Assembly: GCF_003991155.1 (NCBI RefSeq)
Contig: NZ_CP031293.1
Length of the DNA: 64,000 nt
From: Escherichia coli
Lineage (GTDB): Bacteria > Pseudomonadota > Gammaproteobacteria > Enterobacterales > Enterobacteriaceae
Reading direction: 5' to 3' (one strand)
Both the position numbers and the translations under genes were made by a program. The notes under the pieces were generated by a model that worked only from the letters and a program-made list of their open reading frames with translations, ran no database searches and was not told the origin of the DNA. Below are positions 1,073 to 13,311 of the stretch, piece after piece (position 1 is the first letter of the stretch; each line of letters starts with the position of its first letter).

Positions 1073-1428
1073 TACATTAAATCATCTGGTTCCTAAATAA
1101 CCTTATTATGCACTGTAAGTGTATGTTGGCTTTATAAATTGCAATTTTTATATGGGAATTGTTTTGTCAATAGTTACGAAAAGGATAAATAAAATAACCA
1201 CATCTTCTTGGCGTCGAATATTGGAGAGCGATAATTTATAGTAAACTAGATTACCAGAGAAAAGATAAGTGGCAATATATTTGCTGGTGGCATTTTTATT
1301 AAATATTATATGTGTTGGTTTGTGACTTTAAAAAAATTAATTTTTAATAAAAAGGTGATTTATTTCTCATTTTGATTAATATTGAGGATCCATTATGATT
1401 ATCAGTTGTATGTCATAAAAATGAGGGG

Positions 1429-1452
1429 CTAAAAGCCTCAATGAATTGAGGC
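1429..1452 (-). terminator. Probable intrinsic terminator downstream of the minus-strand recombinase gene
   Basis: Minus-strand hairpin gcctcaat-tca-ttgaggc followed by TTTTA, immediately 3' of the stop at 1467. Confidence 0.45.
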
Positions 1453-1466
1453 CTTTAGAACAGGGG

Positions 1467-2036
1467 TTATATCTTCTTTATATCTAACACATCACTCTCC
1501 CATACTCGTTTAAATCTTGCTGCATTACTGGCTGTATATAATACCGTATGATGTATATTTCTGTGCCCTAAATAATCTTGTATTAGTCTGGTGTCTAACC
1601 CTTGATTAGCTAAAGCATACCCACAACCATGCCTAAGCATGTGAGGATGAATATTAATATTCATATTGTGACTATATTTCTTACACATCTTATACACATA
1701 TTGTCTCGAGATTTTATTTCCTTGACAAGAAAGAAATAAAGAGTCTTCAAAAGGTTTTTTTACTATGTTATCACGTAGTGCTAGCCATTTTTTTAATAAC
1801 AGAACAGTTTCTTTTTGCAGGGGATGTACTGTGGATAATCCATTTTTTAAACGCTTGATATATATTGCTGACTCTGAAAAGTCAATGTCGCTAATCTTTA
1901 GTGCAATAAGCTCGCTTACCCTAAGACCATGTACATATGCCATTTGTAACATGGCTTTATCTCTAATTTCATTTTTTGAACCGTTGATGGCTTCAAAAAA
2001 TAACAACCATTCACTATGAGTAATAAATTTGCGCAT
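1467..2036 (-). CDS. FimB/FimE-family tyrosine site-specific recombinase (possibly ipbA or ipuA of the ipuS/upaE locus)
   Basis: 189 aa with the Fim-recombinase hallmarks (HGLRVSEL..., HPHMLRHGCGYALANQGLDTRLIQDYLGHRNIHHTVLYT). Which of the two names applies is not certain. Confidence 0.8.
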   Translation of the reverse strand: MRKFITHSEWLLFFEAINGSKNEIRDKAMLQMAYVHGLRVSELIALKISDIDFSESAIYIKRLKNGLSTVHPLQKETVLLLKKWLALRDNIVKKPFEDSLFLSCQGNKISRQYVYKMCKKYSHNMNINIHPHMLRHGCGYALANQGLDTRLIQDYLGHRNIHHTVLYTASNAARFKRVWESDVLDIKKI

Positions 2037-12296: not shown

Positions 12297-12343
12297 TCAC
12301 ACAGTGGCAGGAGGGGACCTCCTGCCACCTCAGGGTTGTCATA

Positions 12344-12874
12344 ATGAGTTCTGTAATGAAATTTTCTGTTGTTAATGCAGTAGTGCTGCTGTTGCTGATT
12401 GTACTTACTGGTGTTTTTTATATGAAAAAGTCAAAAGAAATTGCAGTTGTTAATATCGATGCTATTTATAATCAGTCTGCCGCCGGAGACATGGCCAGAA
12501 AACATCTGAATGAGGTTAAGAGTATTCTTGAAAAAGGATATGAGGATGCGCAAAAAGTATTCGCAGATAACGCGAATAAAGAGGCGCTGCTTCTTGATGC
12601 CAGACAAAAACTGGAACGACAATATGTTATTGAGGAAAATAGCGCAAAAATGGTGTTATCCCGTGCGATAGATAATGCTATAGGCACATGGAGAAAAGAC
12701 AATCCTAAAAATATTGCCGTATTGTCTTCAGGTGTTGTGCTTGCGCATAACGAGTCAGCTGATATCACCAAAGAAGTCATGACTCTGGTTGAAAAAGAAA
12801 ATCTGGTTTTTAATAAATTACCCAAAGTGGAAGTGCACAATAAGAATGAAGAGAAACCAGAACAAAGTAAGTAA
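12344..12874 (+). CDS. Skp/OmpH-like periplasmic chaperone paralogue encoded downstream of the autotransporter
   Basis: 176 aa with an N-terminal hydrophobic segment. Blocks EIAVVNIDAIYNQ and NIAVLSSGVVLAHNESADITKEVMTLV resemble Skp KIAIVNMGSLFQQ and [29 protein letters not shown] (from memory). No clear SD; start uncertain. Confidence 0.55.
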   Translation: MSSVMKFSVVNAVVLLLLIVLTGVFYMKKSKEIAVVNIDAIYNQSAAGDMARKHLNEVKSILEKGYEDAQKVFADNANKEALLLDARQKLERQYVIEENSAKMVLSRAIDNAIGTWRKDNPKNIAVLSSGVVLAHNESADITKEVMTLVEKENLVFNKLPKVEVHNKNEEKPEQSK

Positions 12875-13311
12875 TCACTAGATTCTGACGATTTCCAGAA
12901 GGGAGATTCAGCAGGCCAGCATCTGTAATCATTCAGATTTGCTGGCTTGCTGCTAAATATGGTTGCTGAGAAAAATAGCAGGCCAGTAATTTATTCAGAT
13001 TACTGAATATAATAATTTTTCAGGAACGGTTATGCTGAAGGTAGTATGTTTAATCGACACAATTATTTGCTGTGTCTAATATGAGGTGACATTTTTATGA
13101 TCACTGACCAGCAAGACTGACCCGTATTGATTAGCCTGATTATTGGCAACTTATTGGGGTAGTCATTTTGACATCGAATGGGGGAGGTTTCCAGTTAAGT
13201 TCACGAATGCATGATGATTTGCGTTCACATATCGAAGTACTGGTTGACTATACTAAGGATTTTAAGATAACTCACTGATTGTAAGTGGGTTATTGCGAGG
13301 GGGATGATAAA

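Follow-up and report, generated by a model that had tools for sequence, protein, structure and literature searches.

The present analysis deals with a 64,000-nt stretch of Escherichia coli DNA (NZ_CP031293.1), called the window here, and with the segment of it that lies between dsdC and argW, the gene for tRNA-Arg(CCU). Position numbers refer to the window unless another locus is named. An earlier note had described this segment as an island without an integrase that carries two divergent FimB/FimE-type recombinases, a LuxR-type regulator, a 2639-aa autotransporter and a Skp-like gene, and all of these genes were found where it had placed them. Open reading frame (ORF) listing, a tRNA search and protein family searches gave the order ipuB, ipuA, ipuR, upaE and a Skp/OmpH-like gene from dsdC to argW (Table 1).

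Table 1. Features of the argW-dsdC island and its flanks, with positions in the window
Feature	Position	Strand	Basis
dsdC, flanking core gene	119-1072	+	NCBIfam DsdC equivalog, E=3e-181
argW-dsdC island, ~12.3 kb	1047-13311	.	delimited against K-12
ipuB, Fim-type tyrosine DNA invertase, 189 aa	1467-2036	-	RefSeq name in 100%-identical records; NF007370 E=8e-61
ipuB-ipuA divergent intergenic region, 748 bp, 28.6% GC	2037-2784	.	no ORF of at least 60 aa
ipuA, Fim-type tyrosine DNA invertase, full-length 209 aa	2785-3414	+	NF007370 E=1e-74, above curated cutoff; RefSeq name
ipuS invertible element, including both 7-bp inverted repeats	3369-3643	.	direct sequence reading; OFF orientation
Candidate ipuS promoter: -35 TTTATA, 16-nt spacer, -10 TATACG, transcription start site ~3399-3402	3399-3435	-	promoter scan
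Terminator-like hairpin inside ipuS, bidirectional	3576-3596	.	terminator scan, both strands
ipuR, LuxR-C/GerE-type regulator, 206 aa	3732-4352	+	Pfam GerE PF00196, E=7e-12, residues 141-193
upaE, type Va (AIDA-I-type) autotransporter adhesin, 2639 aa	4377-12296	+	TIGR01414 E=4e-119; RefSeq name UpaE
Intercistronic stem-loop, 11-bp stem, no U-tract	12303-12329	+	RNA fold of 12290-12350, whole fold -24 kcal/mol
Skp/OmpH-like periplasmic chaperone paralogue, 176 aa	12344-12874	+	Pfam OmpH (PF03938) E=0.011; relatives; model
argW, tRNA-Arg(CCU), 3' end abutting the island	13312-13386	-	ARAGORN and Rfam tRNA

Both recombinases are Fim-type invertases, as had been proposed, and they are divergently oriented with products that are 52% identical. 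The R..HxxR..Y motifs are intact in the IpuB sequence. The region between the two genes is presumed to be regulatory, and a promoter scan of 2037-2784 gave only consensus promoter-like matches. The LuxR assignment of IpuR rests on a C-terminal GerE/LuxR helix-turn-helix. Residues 1-140 had no Pfam match, including none to Autoind_bind or Response_reg, and the NCBIfam matches align to the C-terminal third only. By its domain content, IpuR is a LuxR-C-type regulator and not a classical quorum-sensing LuxR. UpaE begins with an ESPR domain (residues 1-43, E=8.5e-13), which is followed by PATR repeats, an AC_1 autochaperone domain (E=8.5e-27) and a C-terminal Autotransporter beta-domain (E=1.9e-39). 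The extended signal peptide, passenger, autochaperone and C-terminal beta-barrel domain that define type Va autotransporters are thus found on one polypeptide.

The identity of the locus was examined by a megablast search with 1073-13311 against 5426 complete E. coli genomes. The island was found in 257 of them (4.7%), 231 of which cover at least 80% of the query, and many copies are 100% identical. The genes are therefore not part of a core conserved in all E. coli. The 100%-identical RefSeq records carry the names "tyrosine-type DNA invertase IpuB", "tyrosine-type DNA invertase IpuA" and "phase-variable autotransporter adhesin UpaE". In the same records ipuR is called a "helix-turn-helix transcriptional regulator", and for the Skp-like gene the name is either "OmpH family outer membrane protein" or "hypothetical protein". 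The uropathogenic E. coli (UPEC) strain CFT073 is 98.1% identical over window positions 1-15491 and has the same gene order, namely mlaA, yfdC and argW, then the OmpH-like gene, upaE, the regulator, ipuA and ipuB, and then dsdC, dsdX and dsdA. Relative to the 2002 CFT073 record, the PQ-repeat linker of UpaE is 10 aa shorter (a 30-nt contraction), and two single-base differences, absent here, account for the "frameshifted" flag on upaE in that record. The re-sequenced CFT073 genome annotates UpaE at the matching region.

For these reasons, the interval is almost certainly the known argW-dsdCXA accessory island of the PAI-CFT073-argW type (PAI, pathogenicity island) with its ipuS phase-variation system. 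The locus is already known and is curated in RefSeq. The ipuS element was identified in CFT073, where its orientation was shown to drive ipuR-upaE (Battaglioli et al. 2018, mBio, PMC6083910), and a 2020 review lists PAI-CFT073-argW with IpuA, IpuB and DsdA (PMC7545054). The earlier note had correctly matched the locus to the one around ipuA, ipuS, ipuR and upaE in UPEC, although its name ipbA for the second invertase gene should read ipuB. Nothing was found that contradicts the ipuS-UpaE identification.

The ipuS switch and its orientation

The earlier note had named ipuS, but neither the element nor its OFF state was located there; both can now be placed. What our analysis itself shows are the identities of the genes, where the switch lies and how it is oriented, and the synteny. 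Two perfect 7-bp inverted repeats, TGACCCA at 3369-3375 (within the 3' end of ipuA) and TGGGTCA at 3637-3643, are separated by 261 bp. Each repeat stands in a locally palindromic site, which reads ACATTTTG-ACC-CAAAATGT on the left and CAAAATG-GGT-CATTTTG on the right. The spacer between ipuA and ipuR (3415-3731) is 317 bp, equal to the published length (PMC6083910). A single PacI site lies inside the element, at 3613, and a PacI site was exploited in the published assay of ipuS orientation (bioRxiv 10.1101/494401).

The breakpoints were examined by inverting 3376-3636 in silico. This changes the 209-aa IpuA, which ends in ...HFDPKCKPNLCLEILV, into a protein of 198 aa that ends in HFDPF*. Inversion to the ON state is described as an 11-aa truncation of IpuA with a K-to-F replacement (PMC6083910, Fig. 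1C legend), which is the change obtained here, and thus the breakpoints agree with the paper. Moving the right breakpoint by one base (inverting 3376-3637) gave an IpuA of 203 aa, which disagrees with the paper, and this placement was rejected. In the paper, full-length IpuA, with 209 aa, marks the OFF state (PMC6083910), and ipuS as read from the sequence of the window is thus OFF.

The ipuS promoter was mapped by 5' RACE to a start site within the ipuA-coding part of ipuS, with four of six matches in each hexamer (PMC6083910). The minus-strand candidate in Table 1 fits this description in both respects, with four of six matches in each hexamer and its start site in the ipuA-coding part of ipuS, and it may be the published promoter. 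In the OFF state it would be directed away from ipuR and antisense to the 3' end of ipuA. The hairpin inside ipuS lies between ipuA and the ipuR side in either orientation, so it probably insulates ipuR-upaE by blocking read-through from ipuA.

The working of the locus can be outlined from these features, with inversion, the promoter and the UpaE phenotypes taken from the literature; the terminator's role, a shared transcript of upaE and the Skp-like gene and the way in which the island was acquired are our own reading. IpuB and IpuA would invert the ~260-bp ipuS by way of its 7-bp repeats, as could the Fim recombinases encoded elsewhere; all five Fim recombinases can invert ipuS (bioRxiv 10.1101/494401, 2018). 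The element would carry an outward-facing sigma-70-type promoter and has its distal repeat inside the 3' end of ipuA. When OFF, the promoter would point back into ipuA and leave ipuR and upaE silent, very probably together with the Skp-like gene downstream, and the internal hairpin would probably stop read-through from ipuA. When ON, the promoter would face ipuR-upaE and IpuA would lack its 11 C-terminal residues. UpaE would then be placed on the cell surface and would promote the biofilm formation, extracellular matrix binding and kidney colonisation shown experimentally for it in CFT073.

The ON orientation was looked for with a synthetic ON-form switch as query against the same 5426 genomes. 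It was found in none of the 236 genomes that matched, in which the ON query never aligned as one collinear piece, and thus the switch is OFF in every complete assembly that carries ipuS. This agrees with a strong OFF bias in culture. According to a published report, IpuA inverts the element most efficiently from ON to OFF (bioRxiv 10.1101/494401), from which an OFF-biased culture population would follow.

Several points weigh against the identification of a working ipuS switch. First, IpuB scores 205.1 bits against NF007370, slightly below the curated cutoff of 221. Secondly, the repeats stand 261 bp apart here, where the paper gives "260 bp", a counting or an allelic difference. Third, the candidate promoter is assigned by its fit to the published description. 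Lastly, one assembled sequence cannot show inversion, and with all 236 assemblies in the OFF state, switching finds no independent support at the population level from assemblies.

The Skp-like gene downstream of upaE

The Skp-like gene had been named from the sequence in the earlier note, and on its own the protein gives only the marginal Pfam match to OmpH listed in Table 1 and no match in NCBIfam. The assignment was borne out by its relatives and by a structural model. An exhaustive phmmer search returned 163 representative relatives at E<=1e-3, and 68 of these were aligned. OmpH was matched by 41 of the 68 at E<=0.001 and by 62 at E<=0.1, and a profile built from the alignment matched OmpH-like Protein Data Bank (PDB) chains with E values of 4e-4 to 2e-3. 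An AlphaFold (AF2) model, with a mean predicted local distance difference test score (pLDDT) of 91.4 and a predicted TM-score (pTM) of 0.76, has a hydrophobic helix at residues 9-27, strands at 32-36 and 123-128 and helices at 46-72 and 79-119, which form a beta core with a long helical hairpin. The top Foldseek matches to this model in the PDB were E. coli Skp (1SG2/1U2M, probability 1.00), the SkpA of a type IX secretion system and the Caulobacter OmpH-like protein 4KQT, with probabilities of 0.99-1.00 and TM-scores up to 0.68. At the level of family profiles and predicted fold, the product is thus confirmed as Skp-like.

The protein differs from Skp in several ways. The likeness consists of the predicted beta-strand core, the helical hairpin "tentacle" and the membership in Pfam OmpH, whereas identity to E. 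coli Skp is only 16-20% across the aligned residues. Also, the hydrophobic helix at the N-terminus is accompanied by neither a lipobox nor an obvious cleavage motif and looks like a predicted uncleaved membrane anchor, in contrast to the ordinary signal peptide of Skp. A lipobox is present in 26 of the 68 relatives. Together with the anchor predicted here, this suggests that the relatives are a family of membrane-tethered Skp-like proteins. In addition, the skp gene of E. coli sits in the bamA-skp-lpxD housekeeping cluster, whereas the Skp-like gene stands beside a single giant candidate client.

The position of the gene raises the question of whether it belongs to the operon controlled by ipuS. 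It starts 47 bp past upaE on the same strand, and no same-strand promoter-like match was found between the two genes. The stem-loop that separates them is kept in five loci, with a compensatory change from C:G to T:A in locus L012. In a gene-context sample of eight loci, the gene follows directly on a large autotransporter in seven (the window, L004, L005, L006, L008, L009 and the relatives L012/L014), while the remaining one, L013, starts too near the gene to tell. The distant relatives in L012 and L014, with 44% and 31% identity, also follow autotransporters. Homology among the different islands extends through the Skp-like gene and ends ~78 bp beyond it.

It is proposed from the gene context and from the conserved hairpin without a U-tract that the Skp-like gene is co-transcribed with upaE and encodes a chaperone dedicated to this client. 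In its full form, that the gene is an overlooked third gene of the ipuS-controlled operon and supplies a periplasmic chaperone for the passenger of the 2639-aa UpaE, the proposal is tentative, with a chance somewhat short of even. The alternative is an independent passenger gene with its own promoter, no tie to UpaE and a place outside ipuS control, which we consider rather unlikely. It would fit the published account, which speaks of a two-gene operon ipuR-upaE and from which the Skp-like gene is absent (Battaglioli 2018, PMC6083910), and it would fit the strength of the hairpin after upaE and the lack of a clear Shine-Dalgarno sequence ahead of the annotated start. However, the short same-strand gap without a promoter-like match, the missing U-tract of the hairpin and the end of inter-island homology only after the gene all speak against an independent unit, as does the recurrence behind large autotransporters, which holds for distant relatives and under differing upstream regulators.

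Distribution, edges and origin of the island

Published counts give an enrichment of the locus in UPEC, with 37% of UPEC against 7% of commensals (PMC6083910). Among the complete genomes searched here, the strains with an identical copy had been isolated from the human rectum, cattle, chickens, sheep and wastewater, the carriers include CFT073, Nissle 1917 and ATCC 25922, and the switch region was also matched in SMS-3-5, IAI39 and CE10. Thus, given the identical copies from livestock, wastewater and humans and the presence in Nissle 1917 and ATCC 25922, the locus is not specific to UPEC.

The switch is also not confined to E. coli. Salmonella enterica subsp. diarizonae (L006 265-10337, GCA_017944985.1) has a syntenic locus with an ipuA-like invertase of 204 aa, a GerE regulator of 204 aa, an autotransporter of 2632 aa and an OmpH-like protein of 179 aa. 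Its spacer contains TGACCCA at L006 positions 849-855 and TGGGTCA at 1118-1124, with 262 bp between them. A three-way alignment that includes L006 shows no variation over ~30 nt at each of the two recombination sites, while the interior of the element is strongly diverged, which is the pattern expected of functional half-sites.

Other relatives were seen without the invertases. In E. coli strains A134_1EC (L004 5524-14684) and A41 (L005 4554-13416), a trio of regulator, UpaE-like and OmpH-like genes without ipuA or ipuB lies at another chromosomal site. There it adjoins remnants of the insertion sequences (IS) IS66, IS21 and IS3, a CaiF/GrlA-family regulator and genes of type VI secretion or two-partner secretion; in A41, the autotransporter and the OmpH-like gene are both frameshifted. 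An Escherichia contig with P1/P7-type phage-plasmid genes (L009 729-11183) carries a UpaE homologue, 83% identical, with an OmpH-like partner. Divergent FaeA(PapI)-like and PapB-like regulators precede this homologue, no invertase switch is found there, and a GerE gene follows the pair. Judged by these genes, the front end of L009 is a different regulation on the same putative adhesin-chaperone pair. A Pap-type methylation switch was also considered for L009; only one GATC was seen by eye in the intergenic region, and no claim is made. A second Escherichia contig with P1/P7-type genes (L008 1341-10543) has a related arrangement in which only PapB was called upstream, with an ESPR-bearing autotransporter fragment.

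If the chaperone reading of the Skp-like gene holds, the autotransporter, the conserved hairpin and the tethered Skp-like gene may be a general two-gene secretion module that is placed under island-specific phase-variation controls. In E. coli and Salmonella diarizonae this control may be an invertase switch, and on the phage-plasmid-like contig it may lie with PapB/FaeA-type regulators.

The edges of the island were defined by comparison with K-12. Homology to K-12 ends at window position 1046, within the last codons of dsdC, and restarts at 13305, 7 bp ahead of argW, and thus the variable segment is ~1047-13311. The earlier note had given 1073-13311, which is correct on the right, whereas on the left the edge moves to ~1047 inside dsdC. 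The last ~9 codons of dsdC are accordingly specific to the island. DsdC ends in ...REQVSQYECYTL in the window and in ...REQVKTTS in K-12, so the ipu island and K-12 have alternative DsdC C-termini. As the earlier note had stated, the same argW-dsdC interval of K-12 MG1655 holds the cryptic prophage CPS-53 (2466369-2476583), with intS beside argW and pawZ, a 15-bp repeat of the argW 3' end, at the far end. K-12 also has a stretch of ~110 bp (NC_000913.3 2476599-2476708) that separates pawZ from the part of dsdC common to both and is neither annotated as CPS-53 nor present in the window.

The composition of the island differs from that of its surroundings, and the AT-rich spacers mentioned in the earlier note are evident. 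GC content is 43.7% for the island overall, 49% in upaE, 26-38% elsewhere in the island and 26-29% in the spacers, against 52% in the remaining window. GC content at third codon positions (GC3) is 26-36% in the small island genes and 47-56% in dsdC, yfdC and mlaA. The gene-free parts of the interval contain no ORF of at least 60 aa. No phage-type integrase was found in the interval, in line with the earlier note, and its only recombinases are the invertases of ~190-210 aa, themselves members of the tyrosine recombinase/integrase superfamily. The earlier note had suggested looking for the argW 3' end as a direct repeat, and no such repeat was found in 1-13311 on either strand, either as an exact match of at least 10 nt or as an approximate match of 15-25 nt. 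One argW-like match of 15-20 nt within upaE was dismissed as chance, and none lay near the dsdC end. A scan of the whole window with Rfam found only tRNA and one naRNA4/REP (repetitive extragenic palindromic) element, and no known RNA family in the island.

These observations bear on the origin of the island. Relative to CFT073, ~1.6% of positions are substituted within the island, compared with ~1.9-2.5% in the core that flanks it. Since the two are about equal, the comparison points to an old accessory segment that would have been vertically inherited or homologously exchanged and not recently integrated. Alternatively, a prophage or an integrative island may once have entered at the argW attB, as CPS-53 did, and the island could be what is left of it after decay and the loss of integrase and att repeat, with the invertases and the adhesin as surviving cargo. 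This concerns the origin alone and is compatible with the functional explanation. In its favour, the 3' end of argW, which adjoins the island, is a documented phage attachment site, used by CPS-53 in K-12 and, according to the abstract of its description, by phage Kapi1. The low GC outside upaE, the low GC3 and the patchy distribution also agree with it, as does the occurrence of the regulator-UpaE-Skp trio beside IS remnants in other islands and on a contig with P1/P7-type phage-plasmid genes. Nevertheless, we regard it as rather unlikely, given the missing integrase, the failure of the exact and approximate repeat searches, a left junction that falls inside dsdC and not at an att-like site, and a divergence from CFT073 that does not suggest recent transfer.

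A further alternative, that the switch is effectively locked OFF in this lineage and the locus is a silent relic from which UpaE is never expressed, would account for the absence of ON assemblies but is very doubtful, because both repeats and the ORFs of ipuR, upaE and the Skp-like gene are all intact, as are the two invertase ORFs including their catalytic motifs, the half-sites do not differ from those of CFT073, for which inversion has been shown by experiment, an assembly gives only the majority orientation of a culture in which IpuA is reported to favour ON-to-OFF, and the 7.9-kb ORF is intact in most carriers, which argues for selection.

Several other loci in the window were noted. Between smrB and the yfc fimbrial operon there is an anti-phage pair of the Septu type (30603-32406, minus strand). 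It consists of the AAA ATPase PtuA (404 aa, 31192-32406, PADLOC E=2.8e-154; "AAA family ATPase" in RefSeq) and the HNH nuclease PtuB (207 aa, 30603-31226, PADLOC E=2.1e-89; "hypothetical protein" in RefSeq). An insert of 32-35% GC between mlaA and fadL carries a 415-aa ORF (15622-16869, minus strand) that had no match in NCBIfam or PADLOC. As mlaA and fadL are adjacent in CFT073 and yfdF lies there in K-12, this is a second small variable locus beside the argW island. The Rfam naRNA4 match, a REP-derived nucleoid-associated RNA, is at 50645-50715 on the plus strand with 76.6 bits. In the near-identical NZ_CP029747.1, IS621 (IS110 family) lies between cvpA and dedD; the window is without IS621. 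In the window purF is at 51437-52954, 1279 bp earlier than NZ_CP029747.1 predicts.

Comparison with known systems and meaning

The closest known system is the ipu locus of CFT073, which has the same genes, order and site, the same 317-bp spacer and 7-bp repeats, the same length of OFF-state IpuA and the same predicted truncation in the ON state. The window differs from it as an allelic variant (~1.6% substitutions) of which identical copies come from sources other than UPEC. The fimB/fimE-fimS-fimA system shares the paired small Fim tyrosine invertases and a short promoter-bearing invertible element with short inverted repeats, and the recombinases act across both the fimS and ipuS switches. 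However, the repeats are 7 bp in ipuS and 9 bp in fimS, the distal ipuS repeat lies within a recombinase gene so that inversion alters the C-terminus of IpuA, the ipu recombinase genes are divergent where those of fim are in tandem, and the output is a regulator with an autotransporter and not a chaperone-usher fimbria. The fimX-hyxS-hyxR system of PAI-X in UPEC is, according to the literature, likewise an island-borne Fim-type invertase with an invertible promoter element and a LuxR-type first controlled gene. It differs in that hyxS has 16-bp repeats and is inverted by FimX only, and in that neither an autotransporter nor a Skp-like gene lies downstream. CPS-53 (KpLE1) of K-12 has only the argW-dsdC interval in common with the island. 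The two share no sequence, and intS, pawZ and the phage genes are all found in CPS-53 and none in the island.

The ipuS-UpaE system is established as a third Fim-type phase switch and controls an adhesin linked to kidney colonisation, and what is gained here for this strain are the coordinates of the switch and its OFF state. Three observations go slightly beyond the literature consulted. First, the locus is not restricted to UPEC, since strains from livestock and wastewater as well as commensal or probiotic ones have identical copies, and a syntenic copy with conserved half-sites is present in Salmonella enterica subsp. diarizonae. Secondly, the switch is OFF in each of the 236 complete assemblies in which it occurs. 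Third, a tethered Skp-like gene is consistently coupled to giant autotransporters. Some new value may lie only in this coupling and in the apparent exchange of upstream phase-variation modules, both of which are put forward as hypotheses drawn from sequence comparison. If the Skp-like protein is truly a client-specific chaperone, it would bear on the understanding and the engineering of the secretion of very large type V passengers.

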